Shown: positions 1 to 22,467, counted from the first letter of the stretch. The stretch: DNA of 22,467 nucleotides from a virus (IMGVR_UViG_2636415673_000005); one strand, 5' to 3'. Notes: generated from the letters alone by a model not told the origin. Numbers and translations: made by a program.

Positions 1-281
1 AATAAGTGACAGATACATTAATACATAACGAAAAATCTTTTTAGCTACTCATTCATATCAATAGTGCCCTACCATAGGGCACATTATTCGTGGAACTCGT
101 TTATGACAAAAGAATTTTGATGGTCTGCCTGATGCAACAGATATAATTCTGGGAGTGTTGAGTAAGAGTATTCACCGGCGCTCAACACAAATGCCAGCAA
201 GCACGAGAAAGAGCAGGTAAGCCTGAGTGTTCAGGAAATGTTTGAAAAGGCTAATATGTGGCTGGTTTCAGATTAAACGCC

Positions 282-309
282 TTGAACCGTCATATTACTT
301 AAGTACAAT
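282..309 (+). promoter_or_regulatory. Putative sigma70-type promoter (TTGAAC - 16 bp - TACAAT) pointing into the antisense strand of the small membrane-protein gene
   Basis: Seen in sequence: TTGAAC at 282-287, 16-nt spacer, TACAAT at 304-309. No convincing plus-strand coding sequence follows (plus ORF 372-857 uses rare codons and has a His/Arg/Pro-rich translation). Function inferred only from the motif. Confidence 0.3.
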
Positions 310-545
310 CCGCCTAGACTAGCAATCATTCAATAGTAGCACTATCGAGCGCTCGCCAGTCGAGCGCAATCATGCTCCTTGCATACGGCGTGCAGCATAT
401 CACAAAACGATTACGCCATGACGGACTGCAGGCTACTCAATATCTGGCTCGATTAGCGTATTGGCATGATTTAACAGACCCCGGCGCTTATTCCCAGCAA
501 CCTGAAGCGGCACCTCTTCCTGTGTTGCGTTTACAACTCCCTTTT

Positions 546-845
546 TCACCCACGATTAACCAACAGCCAGACCAGCAGACAAGCCACCACCGGCACAGAA
601 AAATCCATCAGGCTTGCCACATCCCACACGCGCGGATCAAAACCACCCCACCACGGCATATGCATACGCTTGCCATGCCCGAACATTTCAATCCAGCGAT
701 ATTCTGCCTGGGTATGTTCACGAGCAATGAAGAACGTACAACCGGCTATCGCCCCGTAAGCCCAGTTTCCGGTAAAAAGACCAACCAGTACCTGCGCAGC
801 CACAGCACAAAGTGCATGAAGGAAAGGTGTTATATCCATTTTCAT
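546..845 (-). CDS. Small hydrophobic (predicted inner-membrane) protein of unknown function, about 99 aa
   Basis: ORF track 546..854 starts at a TTG; I prefer the ATG at 845 (MKMDITPF...) or 839, which has AGGA just upstream. Two clear hydrophobic stretches (LCAVAAQVLVGLFTGNWAYGAIAGCTFFIA and FSVPVVACLLVWLLV). Minus-strand codons look E. coli-like (CTG, GTG, CGT, CCG), whereas the overlapping plus-strand ORF uses rare codons. No family recognised. Confidence 0.45.
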   Translation of the reverse strand: MKMDITPFLHALCAVAAQVLVGLFTGNWAYGAIAGCTFFIAREHTQAEYRWIEMFGHGKRMHMPWWGGFDPRVWDVASLMDFSVPVVACLLVWLLVNRG

Positions 846-851
846 CCTACC

Positions 852-876
852 CAATAAAACGGGGCGCTCGGCCCCT
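852..876 (-). terminator. Intrinsic terminator after the distal fibre gene (GGGGC-gctcg-GCCCC hairpin plus U-rich tail); possibly bidirectional
   Basis: Seen in sequence: 5-bp GC stem at 861-865/871-875 with a 5-nt loop. On the minus-strand RNA it is followed by GUUUUAUU; on the plus strand by UUAAUAUUAUUU. It sits directly after the stop of the 882-1922 gene. Confidence 0.5.
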
Positions 877-881
877 TAATA

Positions 882-1922
882 TTATTTAGACGCAAGCGTC
901 GCCTCAATTGCAGATAATCTTTGTTTTAATTCTGCATTTTCTTCTTCCAGTGCTGTTATTCTGTCGTCTGACTCTCTGGCTACCTGAACAAGCAAGCCAG
1001 TAACACCAGAATAATCTACTGTGTAATAACGTTCACCTTCTTCACCTTCCGATCCGCTTGCACCGTCCTGATATTTCATTGCGGAACCTACAGCTTCTGG
1101 GATTGCTTCCAGAGCTTCCTGTGCAATGACACCAGCATAGGGCATACCGTTTTCTTTAAGCGTGTATGTATAGCCGTTCATTTTACGGATGCGGTCGGTT
1201 GCATTATCGATCACCTGAATGTTGTCTTTCAGATCCCGGTCGGAATGCTGGTTAAATGCGGTGGCATGACATGCACCATTAACGCTTAACATATAGGTGT
1301 TATCGGTATTTTTCTGCGCATAGAACATATAAGCGCCACCATCAACACCGACTTCATAAACAACAGGACGGCTGGAGTTGCCCCACAATTGAGCAGTAAC
1401 ACCAGCATAAGCGGTTCCCTGTGTGTTTAATGTCATGGTTGACCCATGATTGGCATATTTGATCTGTAATGTGTCGGTGTAATTAAATTTAATAAGCGCG
1501 TTACTTCCACGCTTGCTGTATGACATAAGGCAGTTACCCATTTTGAGGTATCCGCTGTCACCGGGAAAAATCATCGTACCGCCATAAAGGTTGGTAAAGT
1601 CCCAGCAAATGTTTGTCCCGTTATCGTTCAGGTTAAGGCGCGCCATTGCGTTACCTGGACTGTCTATCCATTTTTTGAGGTATAGTTCGCAATACGCATC
1701 CTCAACACCTGCCGTCCTGTGAGTTGAGCGGAGTTTTCTCCCAAATATAGCTCCGCTAGTTGGCAATACCTGCTGATACCATGAAGCAGACCAGTCACCA
1801 ACGATTTCATCTTTGCTGTCTACATATAATTTTGTTGCGTAGCTTCCTTGATCGTTTTTTAATTTGCTAACGTCGGATTTTAGCGTTTTGATGTCATCAG
1901 GAATTACTGTCGATGTAGCCAT
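882..1922 (-). CDS. Distal tail fibre / receptor-binding protein with a C-terminal intramolecular chaperone (peptidase S74-like) auto-processing domain
   Basis: 346-aa ORF. The C-terminal ~120 aa (…NQHSDRDLKDNIQVIDNATDRIRKMNGYTYTLKENG…AQEALEAIPEAV… then a coiled-coil tail EEENAELKQRLSAIEATL) matches the pattern of the chaperone domain found at the C-termini of endosialidases and phage tail fibres. GAGGAAG lies upstream of the ATG. The N-terminal ~225 aa is unrecognised. Confidence 0.6.
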   Translation of the reverse strand: MATSTVIPDDIKTLKSDVSKLKNDQGSYATKLYVDSKDEIVGDWSASWYQQVLPTSGAIFGRKLRSTHRTAGVEDAYCELYLKKWIDSPGNAMARLNLNDNGTNICWDFTNLYGGTMIFPGDSGYLKMGNCLMSYSKRGSNALIKFNYTDTLQIKYANHGSTMTLNTQGTAYAGVTAQLWGNSSRPVVYEVGVDGGAYMFYAQKNTDNTYMLSVNGACHATAFNQHSDRDLKDNIQVIDNATDRIRKMNGYTYTLKENGMPYAGVIAQEALEAIPEAVGSAMKYQDGASGSEGEEGERYYTVDYSGVTGLLVQVARESDDRITALEEENAELKQRLSAIEATLASK

Positions 1923-1931
1923 TTTTCTTCC

Positions 1932-2213
1932 TCACATCCAGCCACGAAGTTGATGCTCAACAGCAACCACGTATTCATCGAATAATGATGATATTTGCGA
2001 ATCATTAATGATGCGCACGTTTACAAAATATCCGTCTTCCTTAACACATACCGGTTCGCCATCTTCAGTCAGTTCTCCGGTTTCTTTGTACACGTTACCT
2101 ATCACGTCAATAAGAATATCATCCTGCATCGACTCGTCATCATAATAGCCAATACTCTCCATAAAGGCCGAAAAGTCGGCCCTGTCGGCAAATTTGAGTG
2201 TTAAATCTTTCAT
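1932..2213 (-). CDS. Small, strongly acidic protein (93 aa) translationally coupled to stf; possible fibre assembly factor
   Basis: Its ATG overlaps the stf stop (TAATG at 2211-2215). Composition is 21 Asp+Glu against 7 Lys+Arg. No similarity to lambda Tfa that I can recall. Function is inference from position only. Confidence 0.45.
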   Translation of the reverse strand: MKDLTLKFADRADFSAFMESIGYYDDESMQDDILIDVIGNVYKETGELTEDGEPVCVKEDGYFVNVRIINDSQISSLFDEYVVAVEHQLRGWM

Positions 2214-4588
2214 TAGATTGACTCCCCCACCTGAGCATCAGTCAATGCCTTGTGCCATATTCTGAAATTCCTGACATGACCAAATAAATGACGTAACCCG
2301 GCTGTAGTCTGGCCTCCAATACGGATAATTGCGGTGTTCTGAATACAGGACCATGTGGTTTTTGTTTCGCTGGATATATGCCCGTTACTTACTGAGCACG
2401 TAGACTGCTCTGACTTTACACGCATCCCCATAACCATTTTTTCAAGCGATGCGTTTTCGTTTACCCGTCTGTTAGCTCCTCCAATATCGCAATAAGGAAA
2501 TCCGTCGTAATCTGTTGAACGACCGAAGCCAAGAATAATAGCCGCTCCGGTTTGATGACCGCCGGTATCAAAAACACGTGGCGCTGCATTTGGCGTTTTA
2601 TACCAGTTCTTATGTACCTCACAAAGAACCGTAAAAGGAAGATTATAAAGATTATTCTTAATTGGAACTGTAACTATATCGCTTGCGCGGGTCGCCGCCG
2701 TCGCTCCTGATATAATAAAAGATGATACACAAGGCCCATCTTCTACTTGTGGGGTGGCCAGATAAATATAGTCACCAGATACGGTTGCCCCGCTCTGCTT
2801 AGGAGAATACTGTATCTGAGAGCCTATTTTTAACTCCCCATCAATTGCCTGAATTGTTGCCTCTGCAAAAATCCATCCGGTAGCTTCGTCCTTTCTGACT
2901 CTCGCTGTAATCCTTGAGGCAGCACCGCCTGTCATATTAATTTCAAGCGTTTGTGTATCAATATACGCATCACCAAGAAAAGTTGTTGCGCTACCGTCAT
3001 ATTTATCAAACCGGATACGCAACCTTACCTGCAGTTCTGTTTTAAAACGACATGAGGTTGTCACGTGTTTATTATCGCCTGAGACATCAACTGACTTTGT
3101 TGCAGCAATTGATGCCATATTAATGGCTGAGGTTTGCCCAATCAGAGAATCGTTGCAGACAAACTTTCCATAGGTAAAACCAAAATTATCCGTCCCTGTT
3201 TCGGGCACATCCATATTTGACGATCGCCCCCAACTGGCAGGGCTTTCCGAATTGAGCATGTAGTTTGTTCTTTGCCCCTCAATAAGCAGGCCATCACGTT
3301 CAAATCGTGGCTCGTCAATGGCAGCCTCTGTCAGCACACCAGATTTGTTAATATAGGTTGCTTTCGATGCACGTTTAAACTTAACAATCTTGTCGCCAGG
3401 CATCGTTATTTCATCGTCACCAATAACAATTTTTTTATATGACGGCGAAAAGCCCGTAATCATATCCAGCGAATCGTTAAATGGTATCCACACATCAGGC
3501 AGCGGCTGTAAGACATATTTATACGGCTCCGCAGCCTGGCTTGCGTACTCTCTGGCTGCATCTTCGCTTGCTTTAGCTGCCGTCTGGCTTGCTGCCGATG
3601 CTTTCGCTGAGTTCGCAGCCGCTGTTTCGCTCACCTTTGCGTTGGTTTCACTGGTTTTTGCTGCTTTTTGACTGTTAGCTGATGCAGTGGCAGAAGCAGC
3701 CGCCGCGCTTGCAGAACTGGCTGCGGCACTCTCGCTTTGGGCCGCTGCATCCTGACTGCTTTTCGCCGCAGTTTCACTGGCTTTGGCATTCGTTTCGCTG
3801 GTCTTCGCTGCCGTCTGGCTGGACTTTGCGTTAGTTTCACTCGTCTTCGCAGCTTTCTGGCTGTTAGCCGCAGCAGTTGCTGATCCAGCTGCTGAAGTCG
3901 CAGAACCGGCTGCCGCGCTCTCGCTTTCAGCTGCTGCAGCCTGGCTGTTTTTTGCCGCAGTTTCACTGGCTTTAGCATTCGTTTCGCTGGTTTTCGCTGC
4001 CGTCTGGCTGGACTTTGCGTTGGTTTCGCTCGTCTTTGCGGCTGTCTCACTGTTTTTCGCGTTGGTTTCTGATTTTTTGGCTGCTGTCGCGGAGTTTGCC
4101 GATGCAGTCTTTGAGGTCGCTGCCGCCTGTGCACTATTAGCTGCATTCGTTTCTGAGGTTTTCGCCGCGTTCTTCGATGATGCCGCTGCAGTTTCGGATT
4201 TCTTTGCCGCCGCTGCGCTCTGAGAGGCGGCTTCGGCGTTGCGTGCCACTTCTTCCACCATTGCCTCAAAACGACGCAATGCCTCCGGCATGACATCATC
4301 TTCCGTCATGGCACCGAGAAAATCATTCAGCGTACCTGGTCTGGAGCCTTCATAGACGGTAATGGTCCCGGCATGTGAAGGCGGAAAACCTTCAACCAGC
4401 AGGATGACGCTGTACTGGCCATGCTCAACATCCATGCTGTAACGCCCGGCTTCATCCGGATTTTCAGAGGCCACCGTGTTCACCAGTACCGTGGTGCTGT
4501 TACGCTTTGCCTTCAGTTGAATAGTGCAGTTCTGTATTGGTTTTCCCGCACAATCTTTCAGCACACCTGAGATTTTTACTGCTGCCAT
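2213..4588 (-). CDS. stf: Side tail fibre protein (lambda Stf-like N-terminus, Ala/Ser/Thr-rich repeat shaft, divergent C-terminal domain)
   Basis: N-terminus MAAVKISGVLKD…TIQLKAKRNSTTV…GRYSMDVEHGQYSVILLVEGFPPSHAGTITVYE matches my recollection of the lambda Stf N-terminal domain. Likely start is the ATG at 4588, with GGAG 9 nt upstream; the ORF track begins at a GTG at 4594. The central region is a low-complexity repeat (AAKTSETNAKxS…) and the C-terminal ~400 aa is unlike lambda Stf. Confidence 0.8.
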   Translation of the reverse strand: MAAVKISGVLKDCAGKPIQNCTIQLKAKRNSTTVLVNTVASENPDEAGRYSMDVEHGQYSVILLVEGFPPSHAGTITVYEGSRPGTLNDFLGAMTEDDVMPEALRRFEAMVEEVARNAEAASQSAAAAKKSETAAASSKNAAKTSETNAANSAQAAATSKTASANSATAAKKSETNAKNSETAAKTSETNAKSSQTAAKTSETNAKASETAAKNSQAAAAESESAAAGSATSAAGSATAAANSQKAAKTSETNAKSSQTAAKTSETNAKASETAAKSSQDAAAQSESAAASSASAAAASATASANSQKAAKTSETNAKVSETAAANSAKASAASQTAAKASEDAAREYASQAAEPYKYVLQPLPDVWIPFNDSLDMITGFSPSYKKIVIGDDEITMPGDKIVKFKRASKATYINKSGVLTEAAIDEPRFERDGLLIEGQRTNYMLNSESPASWGRSSNMDVPETGTDNFGFTYGKFVCNDSLIGQTSAINMASIAATKSVDVSGDNKHVTTSCRFKTELQVRLRIRFDKYDGSATTFLGDAYIDTQTLEINMTGGAASRITARVRKDEATGWIFAEATIQAIDGELKIGSQIQYSPKQSGATVSGDYIYLATPQVEDGPCVSSFIISGATAATRASDIVTVPIKNNLYNLPFTVLCEVHKNWYKTPNAAPRVFDTGGHQTGAAIILGFGRSTDYDGFPYCDIGGANRRVNENASLEKMVMGMRVKSEQSTCSVSNGHISSETKTTWSCIQNTAIIRIGGQTTAGLRHLFGHVRNFRIWHKALTDAQVGESI
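3560..4210 (-). repeat. In-frame tandem repeats inside stf (about three copies of a ~189-bp / 63-aa unit, with 21-bp sub-repeats)
   Basis: Seen in sequence: the string gccgcagtttcactggcttt…gctgccgtctggctggactttgcgtt recurs at 3765 and 3954 (period 189 bp), with a more degenerate copy upstream. The spurious ORFs on both strands here (3390-3671+, 3783-4223+, 3631-4299-) are low-complexity artefacts. Confidence 0.7.
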
Positions 4589-4598
4589 ATCCACTCCA

Positions 4599-4652: not shown

Positions 4653-5252
4653 TCAGAATTTATAACCGACACCCACGATGAAACCGTCAGTGCGCCAGTC
4701 ACCACTGCCGGAGCCTTCATAAGCAATATCAATGGCCACGGATTCGGTCGGGTTAAACTGCACGCCAGCCCCCCACGCCAGAGACGTGTTGCTGTGGCGA
4801 CCGTCATCACTTCCAGTCAGCACATCGTGCGTTTTCCCCTTGCTGTCAGTTACGCGGAGATAATCCCCGGAAAAAGTTGAAACACGGCTGTAAGCCACAC
4901 CTGCCATCGCATAAGCACTGAACCATTCATTCACGCGTACAGACGGCCCCGCCATCATGCTGAACCAGCGGTTACGCACTGAATCTTCATGCCAGCGGGT
5001 ATCGCTGTAATGCGTTTTTTGCTCATCTTTGGCATTGGCATAACTGAATGACGTCACCAGCCCCAGCGTGTCCGTAAATTCATAACGGTATTTCACGTTA
5101 ATGCCCTTCAGGTCATCGTTGCCGGGCATATCAGTATGGGTCTGAAGATACCCGGCGCTTAGTGTGGACTGATGCTCTGCTGCGCTCGCTGGCGTACCAG
5201 CGGCGACCAGCCAGACTACTGTGGACAGAATAACAGCACATAATTTACGCAT
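4653..5252 (-). CDS. lom: Lom-like outer-membrane protein (Ail/Lom/PagC family beta-barrel)
   Basis: 199 aa with an N-terminal signal peptide (MRKLCAVILSTVVWLVAAGTPASA), alternating beta-strand pattern and a C-terminal aromatic residue (…GVGYKF). It sits between J and stf exactly as lom does in lambda. GAGAGG lies upstream of the ATG. Confidence 0.8.
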   Translation of the reverse strand: MRKLCAVILSTVVWLVAAGTPASAAEHQSTLSAGYLQTHTDMPGNDDLKGINVKYRYEFTDTLGLVTSFSYANAKDEQKTHYSDTRWHEDSVRNRWFSMMAGPSVRVNEWFSAYAMAGVAYSRVSTFSGDYLRVTDSKGKTHDVLTGSDDGRHSNTSLAWGAGVQFNPTESVAIDIAYEGSGSGDWRTDGFIVGVGYKF

Positions 5253-5319: not shown

Positions 5320-8300
5320 TCAGCTAATCGTGATGCCTGCAGTGGCTTTCTTCATCACAACAACCAGCAAATCGCTGATACTTGCTGTGGGATACCAGCC
5401 ATTTACCCACCATGCTGATACAGAAAACTCCAGTGTCATTACGCCACTGCCTGCAGGCATATCAATAACACCCGTGTAAATCAGAGTATTATCCAGAGCC
5501 GTTCGGTTATAAATTTCAGCCCCGTTTTTCTTCACTATCAGGCGGCATGACGAATAAGTATCGCTATTCTCCCGTTCATGTCTGGCACCGCTGAAAGCCA
5601 CCGCTGGAATAACAATTTGCCGGTCAAACGGCTGATCGTCATAAACCCTGACGGTAATGGTCCCTGATGGCCACCGCTCCGGTGCACGGGAGTCCCGGGG
5701 GAAAGCTTTGCCCACTGTTTTAACGAGATCGCCTTCAATCTGGTTCGCGGACAGTTTTCCCAGAACCCGACAGTTCTCGTTAATCGTGACGTTGTTGAGC
5801 GTCCCGGAGTTCGCATTCACGCTACCGCTGATATCGGCATTTTTCGCCGTCAGTCGCCCGTCCGGTGTCAGGGAAAATGCCGGAGGATTACCGCCGCTGG
5901 TAATGGTGGGAGCCGTCAGATATTTCAGGAACACTTCATTCATGAATATCTGATCGCCCTGACCAACAAACATCGGCTTTGTGTTGCCATTCGCAGGATT
6001 AATCATCGCAATCCTGTCTGCCGCCAGCAGCACCTGACTCTGCATGCCGTCGGGGGTGTTCTCAATACCGGCACCGATACCCGCAATATAAAGGCGTCCG
6101 TCCTGCATCTGCTGCAGCTTCACTGCCCACATGCTGTTCAGGTTATTATTTGTATCAACCTGAACCTTCTGTATCTGCTGGATCGCTGCACTCTGGTCTT
6201 CCAGTTTCTTATTGACGGTCTGCGTGATTTCATTGCTGACATCCGTAATGGACGTCCTGATTTCAGCCAGGTCAGGCGCAAGCTGACCGTTATCAATCTG
6301 CGTCCACAGCTCCTGAGCCAGATGGGTTTTCCCTATCTCGCCTTTGAAAAAATCCAGATAGCCGGATGCATCATCACTCGGCTGACCAACAGCCTCCACG
6401 AATGCCGATTTGCCAACGGTGTTCACACTGCGAACGTAAAAATAATAATCATGGCCCGGTTTGATATTGATACTGGCGGCTATCCAGTACAGCCCCGTGC
6501 CAAGGTAGCGCGCTGTGGTTTCAACCTGCCTGATATCGGTAATCCGCTTTTCCGAGAACCAGAACTCAAACTGTACCGTCGGGTCATAAACGGCAAGATG
6601 CGGCGTGGCGGTTATCTGAAAATACCCCGGCGTCAGCTCAATCCGCGACGGTGCTACCGGTGCGGCAATCCGGAACGATACCGACGCCGGATCGCCCTGC
6701 TGTCCCCACGCATTTACCGCCCGGACTGTCAGCGTGTACCGCCCCAGCGCCAGTTGCGTGAAGCGGTATGTGGTTTCCGTCGTCCGGGCCGTGCTGACCA
6801 GCCGCTCACTGCCGTCATCCGCTGCCACGGTCAGGCGAAGCAGGAAGCTCACGCCCTTCACCACCTTCGGCGTGTCCCAGCGCGCCAGCACCTGATATTC
6901 CCCGCTGTCTGCGGTGACTTCGGCGGTCAGGTGCTGCACCGCTGGCGGCGTGACACCATTCACCGTGCCGCTCTGGTCGCCGTCAAAGTGCGCCCCGTTA
7001 TCCACGATGGCTTCTTTTTCCGGTACATGCTGCACGGCAGTGATGGCATACGTGCCGTCATCGTTCTCACGGATACTCACACAGCGGAACAGGCGCTGGC
7101 GCAGCGTCGGCAGCTTCAGCCCCCACATACTGTATTCTGCAACGCCGTCAGGAACCCGGTTCACTTTCACCTTAAGTCCGTCGGTGACGGACTGAACCTC
7201 CACGCTGACCGGATTACCACTTCCGTCAACCAGGCTTATCAGCGTGGTACCGGAGGATGGCAGCGTGATTTCACGGTCGAGCGTCAGCGTCCGGGTCTGG
7301 CTGTTCACCGCCAGCACGCGACCACCGGTGCTGATACCGGCATAGTCATCATCGCAGATTTCAATGACATCGCCCGGTACATGGCGAAGCCCTTCAGCAC
7401 CCACGCTGAAATCCACGGTCTGCGTCTCCAGCAGTTCCGTTTTAATCAGCCACAGCCCGGCGCGGTGTGCCTGCCCCCGGCTGGTACAGCCAAAGGCATC
7501 CATCTTCGTGACATTACGACCGTAACGGGCAATGGCCTGCGTATCTTCAACAAGCTCTGTCGCCGTCTCCCAGCCGTTGTCCGGGTCAATCCAGTTCACC
7601 TCAACGGCATTATGGCGGTCCTTCAGGGCGCTGAAGCTGTAGCGGAACGGCGCGCCATCATCCGGCATCACCACATTACTGCGGTTATAGGTCCACACCT
7701 TATCCGACGGTCGGTCCTGCACGAACGTCAGCGTCTGCCCGTTCCATACCGGCATACAGCGCATCGCCGAGCAGAAATCACTGAGCACATCCCACGCCTT
7801 GCGCTGTGTGGTCAGGTACGCATTACAGGTGATGCGCGGCTCCGTGCCGCCAAAGCCGTCCGGCACTGACTGGTCGCAGTACTGGCCGATGACATACAGC
7901 GCCCATTTGTCCACATCCGCCGCACCAAGACGTTTCCCCATGCCGTAGCGTGGATGGGTCAGCATATCCCACAGACACCAGGCCATGTTATTGCTGTATG
8001 CTGGCTTAAACGTTCCGTCCCAGATACCGCTGTATTGCCGAGTCTGCGGGTTATAGTTCGACGGCACCTGCAGAATACGCCCGCGCAGATGATAATTACG
8101 GCTCACCTGCTGGCTGCCGAACTGCTCCGAATCCACCTGTACGCCGACCAGTGCCGTGTTCGGGTAGCACTGTTTCACATCGATGATTTCGGTGTATGAC
8201 GACCAGAGCGTTTTGTTCTGCAGCTGGTCTGTGGTGCTGTCCGGCGTCATCCTGCGCATCCGGATATTGAACGGGCGCGGCGGCAGGTCACCCACCACCA

Positions 8301-8799
8301 CCGATGCTAGATACTGTGAGGTGGTTTTGCCTTTAATGGTGATGTCTTTTTCCGTCACCCAGCCACCATTACGCTGTATCTGAACCAGCAGGCGGACTTC
8401 CGACGGATTCCGGTCCCCCTTTGAGGTGGTTTCCACCAGTGCCTGCACACCGAAGGTAAAGCGCAGACGGTCGATGTTTGCCGACGTGATGGTCCGGGTA
8501 ATCGGCGTGTCGTACTTCACTTCCGTACCCAGCACCGTCTCGGAGCCGGAGGATTCAAATCCCTCCGGCGGTGTCTGCTCCTGCTCACCGGCCCGGAACA
8601 CCACCGTGACGCCGGATATATTGGTATTCCCCTCACTGTCCAGCACCGGCGTACTGTTCAGCAGCACGCTTTTTAATCCATCCACCGGACCTTCAACCGG
8701 CCCTTCGCTGATGGCATCGATCACACTCAGCAGCTGCGTGGACTTCAGGTTGTCCTTCGCTTCGCGCGGGGTATGCCCCTTACTGCTGCCTTTACCCAT
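5320..8799 (-). CDS. J: Tail tip / host specificity protein J (central tail fibre)
   Basis: 1159 aa. The N-terminus [34 protein letters not shown]… and most of the length match lambda J as I remember it; the last ~150-300 aa diverge. GGAG lies 11 nt upstream of the ATG. Confidence 0.9.

Positions 8800-21374: not shown

Positions 21375-22467
<1,093 letters not shown>

Follow-up and report, generated by a model that had tools for sequence, protein, structure and literature searches.

A gene for a predicted small membrane protein directly follows the tail-fiber genes of a Rac-type lambdoid prophage of Escherichia coli

The DNA analyzed here (the window) is a 22,467-nucleotide (nt) stretch of the viral sequence IMGVR_UViG_2636415673_000005. 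Positions 1 to 900 are 100% identical to Escherichia coli chromosomes, such as that of strain GN06156, in which the matching region is a Rac-type lambdoid prophage located between ttcA/intR and ompN/uspF. In the E. coli genomes that match positions 1 to 900, a sitABCD cargo operon is found just left of the window. The window represents a Rac-type lambdoid prophage of E. coli, whose minus-strand genes are ordered as J, lom, stf, an open reading frame (ORF) of 93 amino acids (aa), a 346-aa fiber gene with an S74 domain, and, in the last position, a small gene predicted to encode a membrane protein. This small gene and its surroundings, which had been described in a first-pass annotation as a possible antisense-controlled toxin locus, are the subject of this study. 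The features at the junction between the fiber gene and the small gene are as follows.

546..839, minus strand: small membrane-protein gene, 97 aa, PHROG 1443 (ORF, RefSeq, phrog_1443, AlphaFold2 model)
840..854, minus strand: 5' leader with the alternative starts TTG 854 and ATG 845 and a Shine-Dalgarno (SD)-like AGGA at 848-845 (sequence)
853..875, minus strand: terminator-like hairpin, stem GGGGC/GCCCC (875-871/865-861), loop CGAGC, tail GTTTTATT (860-853)
882-1922, minus strand: tail-fiber gene, 346 aa, with a C-terminal Peptidase_S74 intramolecular-chaperone domain (Pfam PF13884 at 2.6e-14)
372..857, plus strand: 161-aa antisense ORF, judged spurious

The minus-strand frame is open at 546..854 from a TTG codon and contains in-frame ATG codons at 845 and 839. 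The first-pass annotation had placed the gene at 546-845 with a product of ~99 aa; this ORF and its ATG 845 do exist, but the start is probably 6 nt too far upstream. In viral and genome collections, 84 loci closely related to this one were identified and their junctions compared. The homologous start in these close relatives is ATGGAT, which equals ATG 839 of the window (MDIT..., 97 aa), and the RefSeq coding sequence WP_039720285.1 likewise measures 97 aa. ATG 839 is preceded by the AGGA motif with a 5-nt spacer, and the other junction types carry AAGGAGG or AGGAGG 5 nt before the homologous ATGGAT. ATG 839 is most likely the start of the small gene, as judged from these sequence comparisons. 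Across 40 distinct alleles, variable sites are distributed 9/5/33 over codon positions 1/2/3 of the minus-strand frame, a pattern that points to strong purifying selection and to the minus strand as the coding strand. The plus-strand ORF was rejected as a gene, since its frame is broken in 17 of the 40 alleles and it lacks a family match. The GC content of the small gene (52.4%) differs modestly from that of the fiber gene (44.2%) and the 93-aa ORF (41.5%). Homology among phages stops 30 nt past the stop codon, and the downstream 104-aa ORFs show no similarity, so that they were not taken to form a conserved two-gene module with the small gene. In E. coli, the small gene (546-839) is present at 3835 places in 1894 of 5426 complete genomes (~35%), with a median of 2 and a maximum of 7 copies per genome. 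Fifty-seven of these places are on plasmids, and many of the proteins in databases are incomplete because they lie at the end of a contig.

The hairpin begins 6 nt past the TAA of the fiber gene (884-882) and has a folding energy of -10.1 kcal/mol on the minus strand and -11.4 kcal/mol on the plus strand, where a consensus scan also scored it as terminator-like, with tail TTAATATTAT. Seven terminator-like sites occur in the first 3 kb of the window, compared to 2.3 +/- 1.7 expected. The first-pass annotation correctly described a hairpin (861-875) followed by a T-tract, but its distance of 7 nt to the start applies to ATG 845, while the gap to the likely ATG 839 is 13 nt. A C-to-T variant in the stem, observed in two loci, keeps the pair as G-U. 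The hairpin junction (825-945) was found at 906 places in 705 complete E. coli genomes, which is 906/3835 (~24%) of the gene copies. The 84 close loci fall into three junction types: a 12-nt gap with AAGGAGG (26 loci), a 10-nt gap with AGGAGG (~35 loci), and the hairpin (23 loci); thus, the hairpin is a feature of one type only, the one behind the 346-aa S74 fiber. In 61 of the 84, the small gene abuts the upstream gene by 10 to 12 nt with a strong SD sequence and no hairpin, and other S74 fiber genes overlap the small gene directly. In the P22-like phage 611R6, a 114-nt fiber-gene relic, the hairpin, and the small gene lie together behind an O-acetylase gene, suggesting that they travel as a block. 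The hairpin is a property of the S74-fiber junction rather than a conserved control element of the small gene.

No promoter better than 9/12 was detected in the window, and none between the hairpin and the start. This suggests that the gene is transcribed by read-through from the tail-fiber genes, and the earlier proposal that it is translated only from read-through transcripts is reasonable. The consensus scan found no terminator-like site after the small-gene stop codon. In lambdoid late operons, Q-modified polymerase ignores intrinsic terminators. Strain GN06156 carries a Q-like antiterminator (phrog_753, E value of 4e-79) directly upstream of a lambda-family holin and co-oriented with the late genes, and the HK97 record places putative terminators, adjacent to morons, 10 to 12 nt upstream of late genes I and J. 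We infer that the small gene would be transcribed with the late operon by a Q-modified, terminator-resistant polymerase. The hairpin would then stop only unmodified polymerase, for example polymerase that has initiated within the tail genes of a lysogen, and on the plus strand it may stop transcription converging from the dinI/sit side. Read-through-only expression is the normal state of lambdoid late operons.

Alternatively, the small gene could be an autonomous moron, expressed in lysogens from a promoter upstream of or overlapping the hairpin, with the terminator insulating it from the tail operon. Several observations are in line with such an arrangement. Phage Gally has a strong 9-bp terminator followed by a 190-nt A+T-rich gap with an SD sequence and then the small gene, and in a P1-like Leclercia element the small gene has terminators on both sides, so that expression from the prophage state may occur in some contexts. 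In addition, the GC content of the gene is 52% versus 44% in the fiber gene, the fiber 3' end, hairpin, and small gene moved as a block in 611R6, and the gene is a non-essential addition, absent from otherwise similar phages, which matches the definition of a moron (PMC3594210). However, the only candidate promoter on the minus strand, TTGAGG-15/17-AATAAT/TAATAT at 907-879, would place the transcript start within the hairpin's 5' arm, and its 8 to 9 matches of 12 are at chance level. Moreover, the T-tract is only 13 to 20 nt away from the start codon, a terminator and intergenic space are both missing in 73% of the close relatives, and the gene is also found in large, probably virulent phages. 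We therefore regard an autonomous moron as doubtful.

The small protein matches phrog_1443 over its full length (E value of 3.3e-58; residues 1-96 versus profile positions 1-96 of 97). A single-sequence search yielded 567 homologs (E<1e-3) and a profile search of 5.8 billion proteins yielded 831; the family has 442 representative clusters at 50% identity, with members of 90 to 120 aa. None of the members has a name or Pfam domain in the profile search and the cluster look-ups. Pfam, NCBIfam, and PADLOC gave no match for the query or for 50 distant members, with PhoR, VirB3, and Phage_holin_8 appearing as sub-threshold noise. A sequence profile search of the PDB returned only RUS1 at an E value of 0.24, Foldseek against BFVD found, at E<0.1, only a 42-aa fragment of the PHROG 1443 family itself, and no enzymatic fold was recognized in library and profile searches. 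Nothing on the PHROG 1443 family was found in the literature, and no published function was found.

The AlphaFold2 model, built from a 28-sequence alignment, has a predicted local distance difference test (pLDDT) score of 93.4 and a predicted template modeling (pTM) score of 0.77, with helices at residues 4-23, 26-53, and 74-96. The small protein is thus predicted to be a three-helix integral membrane protein, which agrees with the hydrophobic product noted in the first-pass annotation. No signal peptide or lipobox was found on reading the sequence: there is no basic n-region, and C11, which follows an L instead of G, A, or S, is not conserved. The C terminus is VNRG, and the tail averages 2 to 3 residues with fewer than one lysine or arginine. 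The 40-79 loop contains ~5 lysine or arginine residues, and the sphingomonad homologs have strongly basic C-terminal tails. Conservation is strong. Among relatives at 56 to 95% identity, 26 positions are invariant; in relatives down to 27% identity, at least 90% of the sequences retain H8, G29, R40, E41, Q44, A45, E46, and P83, and E41 and W72 never vary. Close relatives share the stretch MPWWGGFD in the 54-73 loop. The conserved residues cluster on one membrane face, where helices 1 and 3 begin, helix 2 ends, and the 54-73 loop lies. This polar and aromatic motif is common to alpha-, beta-, gamma-, and deltaproteobacterial members. Such conservation is uncommon among small membrane proteins of phages.

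The phages that carry the family infect several classes of Proteobacteria and comprise siphoviruses, myoviruses, podoviruses, and large or jumbo phages. In ~18 distinct phage contexts, the small gene is co-oriented with, and located just 3' of, a tail-fiber or tailspike gene. The contexts are listed below.

Lambdoid phages, E. coli: three different junctions upstream of the small gene
Comamonas prophage: gpJ, 72-aa ORF, small gene
P2/HP1-like Aeromonas prophage: the small-gene start codon overlaps the end of the fiber gene
P1-like Leclercia element: 3' of fiber genes, before lydA/lydB/darA
Salmonella prophage, multi-tailspike: between two pectate-lyase tailspikes
Citrobacter and Enterobacter prophages: gpJ, tailspike, small gene
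Metagenomic prophage contigs: gpJ, then an S74 fiber gene overlapping the small gene by 8 nt
Desulfovibrio: 935-aa pectate-lyase and S74 protein, 0-nt gap
Chelativorans: Laminin_G_3 fiber, overlapping the small gene
Leclercia, second locus: Tail_spike_N protein upstream
Cobetia phage Carin-5, 155 kb: between tailspikes
Kuttervirus KFSST3: fragment of the small gene between tailspike-region genes
Aeromonas jumbo phage ACP1: before a putative tail-fiber gene
P22-like Gally and 611R6: tailspike (and OafA O-acetylase in 611R6), small gene, int
Epsilon15-like phiv142-3: fiber, small gene, membrane protein, holin, endolysin
phiHAP-1 (P2/HAP-1-like): small gene between fiber-assembly and sheath genes

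In phages, the small gene is nearly always located immediately 3' of a receptor-binding gene or its small accessory ORF, in the same orientation. In the P22-like phages Gally and 611R6, it occupies the position between tailspike and int, which is the slot used by P22 for gtrABC. The gene is absent from lambda and HK97 and is found in only some lambdoid phages. Because it is absent from lambda and many relatives with the same tails, it is dispensable. With its copy number, the small gene behaves as a dispersed repeat and could provide a 3' homology arm for the exchange of receptor-binding cassettes between co-resident prophages.

Members of the family also occur outside phages. In at least three Aeromonas species, the small gene lies directly 3' of the pirin gene, and where neighbors are annotated, RIO1 and lipid-A acyltransferase genes are found beyond this pirin-linked copy. 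Single chromosomal copies next to housekeeping genes, including ligA and pnp, are found in Sphingomonadales and other Proteobacteria. Two genomes, that of Sphingomonas arvum and an unclassified one from the Pseudomonadota, have a member directly 3' of ligA (NAD-dependent DNA ligase), with a 25-nt gap or a 4-nt overlap; LigA-like upstream neighbors were observed in 4 of 70 sampled cases. In a Burkholderiales genome, a member starts 1 nt after an unidentified 290-aa ORF. The family resembles HK97 gp15 and YebO in this respect and, by analogy, may have been recruited by phages from a cellular small membrane protein.

Downstream of the small gene, the late operon faces a dinI-type region on the opposite strand, with the following features.

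90..276, plus strand: frameshifted DinI-like pseudogene (RefSeq), homologous to phi80 dinL and Chris1 msgA, convergent with the late operon
277..396 (120 nt), plus strand: conserved non-coding block 3' of dinI-family genes, 75-86% identity to phi80 and Citrobacter phage Chris1 past the stop codon
282..309, plus strand: sigma-70-like TTGAAC-16-TACAAT, 9/12 positions, no extended -10
391..447, minus strand: lambda tfa 3'-end relic and ~20 nt downstream, 86% identity to lambda 22519-22577

In the first-pass annotation, the 282-309 motif was proposed as a promoter for a ~550-nt antisense RNA that would end at the same hairpin and silence a membrane toxin made from read-through mRNA, in the manner of a type I toxin locus. 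The motif is indeed present, but with a 9/12 match it is at chance level (4 such sites found versus 5.4 +/- 2.5 expected in shuffles) and it belongs to the dinI flank. The 277-396 block that contains it also flanks phi80 dinL and Chris1 msgA, is as conserved as coding sequence, and shows uniform identity that is not focused on the hexamers. In phi80 and Chris1, the convergent downstream gene is a tail-fiber gene or an invertase, not a small-gene homolog, so the motif lies in a block that is found elsewhere without the small gene. In phi80, Chris1, and the window alike, the block faces the end of a convergent gene; a 7-bp hairpin within it (346-364) is not conserved. The block might be a 3' untranslated region element, a small RNA (sRNA), or a promoter of the dinI module; whatever its role, it does not serve as an antisense regulator dedicated to the small gene. 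Within E. coli, the flank with the motif (270-545) occurs at 105 places in 105 complete genomes, or 105/3835 (2.7%) of the gene copies, and these copies, all at least 99% identical, are read as one prophage lineage. Rfam detected no known sRNA at positions 1-1000, with only a weak IS009 match at 452-565, which was attributed to the tfa relic. The relic itself is the scar of an earlier cassette replacement and points to an stf-tfa cassette having been replaced by the present fiber cassette.

The locus shares some features with the type I systems Hok/Sok, TisB/IstR, and Ldr/Rdl, namely a hydrophobic small protein and a convergent promoter-like motif, in one window only. The hairpin before the start, the 9/12 motif on the opposite strand, and a hairpin that is terminator-like in both directions are all present, so the layout for an antisense transcript ending at the hairpin exists, but the antisense gene is not conserved with the small gene: the flank accompanies 2.7% and the hairpin 24% of the E. 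coli copies. Type I toxins are usually single-helix hydrophobic peptides of <60 aa. In contrast, the small protein has 97 aa, three helices, and a polar motif conserved across proteobacterial classes. The locus further differs from the known systems in copy number and operon coupling, as genomes carry a median of 2 and as many as 7 intact copies, the gene is in most cases closely coupled to the late gene before it, and in some Proteobacteria the gene overlaps or directly follows housekeeping genes such as ligA. A toxin-antitoxin function is very unlikely, and the antisense-controlled locus was not upheld.

A role in the lysis cycle or the virion was also considered, either as a holin/antiholin-like regulator or as a membrane factor for fiber or tailspike maturation or for a DNA channel. 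The small gene is probably co-transcribed with late structural genes, is present in virulent-type phages, and adjoins lysis genes in P1-like and epsilon15-like genomes. The size and three helices of its product resemble class I holins, and one distant member has a sub-threshold Phage_holin_8 match at an E value of 0.004. However, the gene is dispensable, being absent from lambda and from many relatives whose tails are the same, and non-phage chromosomal copies exist. The holin, endolysin, and Rz-like (spanin) genes of the GN06156 prophage, which include a lambda-family holin, are located >20 kb away. In addition, the protein has no charged C-terminal tail and is conserved in the polar 40-79 loop, not in the helices. 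Such a role is accordingly improbable.

The position of the gene invites comparison with phage genes that modify or protect the host envelope. The moron concept and the inner-membrane superinfection exclusion protein gp15 of HK97, which is related to YebO, have been described previously (PMC3594210). Like gp15, the small protein would be a small inner-membrane protein whose gene lies within a lambdoid tail operon or at its end; both genes adjoin intrinsic terminators, and both have non-phage cellular homologs. However, the two have no sequence relationship (hhalign probability of 0.3%), gp15 has 62 aa compared to the 97 aa, three helices, and conserved loop of the small protein, and its gene lies between the tail chaperone and tape-measure genes rather than after receptor-binding genes. 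The genes for Cor (phi80/N15/T1) and Llp (T5) also encode small envelope proteins directly 3' of receptor-binding genes, and in phi80, cor closes the late operon and is followed by a terminator. The Cor and Llp proteins are lipoproteins of the outer membrane, each specific for one receptor. In contrast, the small protein is predicted to be polytopic, without a signal peptide or lipobox, and is encoded beside many unrelated receptor-binding proteins; hhalign finds no profile similarity to phi80 Cor. The small gene further occupies the same positions as the conversion genes gtrABC of P22, 21/22 of epsilon15, and fun(Z) of P2, but its product showed no homology to Gtr proteins, acetyltransferases, or Fun(Z), and Fun(Z) of P2 has 528 aa and is encoded on the opposite strand.

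Taking the locus and its relatives into account, the small gene is genuine and is the terminal, non-structural accessory gene of the receptor-binding cassette of this Rac-type lambdoid prophage, probably reached by Q-dependent read-through and probably encoding an inner-membrane accessory envelope factor. By analogy with the systems above, the protein would act at the inner membrane, with superinfection exclusion or modification of the envelope or receptor as the leading guess. This guess follows from the location of the gene in the conversion and exclusion slots of cor, gtrABC, and fun(Z), from its dispensability, as seen in lambda and HK97, and from the existence of cellular homologs, as for gp15.

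Several points weigh against this interpretation. Profile and structure searches revealed no similarity to characterized exclusion, conversion, holin, or toxin families. The protein is highly conserved beside differing receptor-binding proteins, which is at odds with receptor-specific exclusion. The gene occurs in large virulent-type phages and as stable chromosomal copies in Aeromonas and Sphingomonadales, so that it may have a general function in the cell or in the lytic cycle and not in lysogenic conversion. Positive-inside charge counts give an ambiguous topology, so that the conserved face is not assignable to one side, and the expression timing and Q dependence are inferred. Finally, an insertion sequence (IS) lies in a head gene: in GN06156, it splits a DUF4055 (portal-like) gene, and the prophage is therefore probably defective.

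A broader and more tentative possibility is that the small gene belongs to a previously unrecognized, widespread accessory membrane family of cellular origin that is linked to receptor-binding genes. Its conserved interfacial motif (H8, R40, E41, Q44, A45, E46, W72, P83, and MPWWGGFD in close relatives) would act on a universal envelope target, in receptor-independent exclusion or envelope remodeling, and the gene would in addition serve as a homology arm for cassette exchange.

The remaining late genes upstream of the S74 fiber gene, which itself matches phrog_4563 at 2e-219 and is labeled tail fiber in RefSeq and phage records, are as follows.

5320-8799, minus strand: J, late tail gene
4653-5252, minus strand: lom, late tail gene
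2213-4594, minus strand: stf, phage_tail_N
1932-2213, minus strand: 93-aa ORF, phrog_1361 (unknown function), between stf and the S74 fiber gene

The 93-aa ORF may encode a fiber accessory or adaptor protein. Similar ORFs of ~92 to 95 aa occur 3' of the fiber genes in the P1-like Leclercia element, and in Lambda_2E9-type phages an ORF of ~92 to 95 aa directly precedes the small gene. At the left end of the window, an 8-bp plus-strand hairpin at 64-82 (GTGCCCTA-CCA-TAGGGCAC, then ATTATTCGTG) sits just past the end of a 795-nt hypothetical gene located before the window, for which it probably acts as the terminator. At the right end, Rfam scores the sRNA isrC (150 bits) at 22206-22328 and on to the window end; this candidate was rejected, as the sequence is actually the 5' end of an IS3-family (ISEc31-like) transposase orfA.

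The regulatory layout of the locus is ordinary, since Q-overridden terminators that abut late genes are standard in mosaic lambdoid operons. The interest lies in the protein, which is encoded in about one third of complete E. coli genomes, usually in at least two copies, and which combines a strong motif with no recognized fold relative. If true, a role in exclusion, envelope modification, or cassette exchange would bear on prophage-mediated phage resistance and on the engineering of phage host range.

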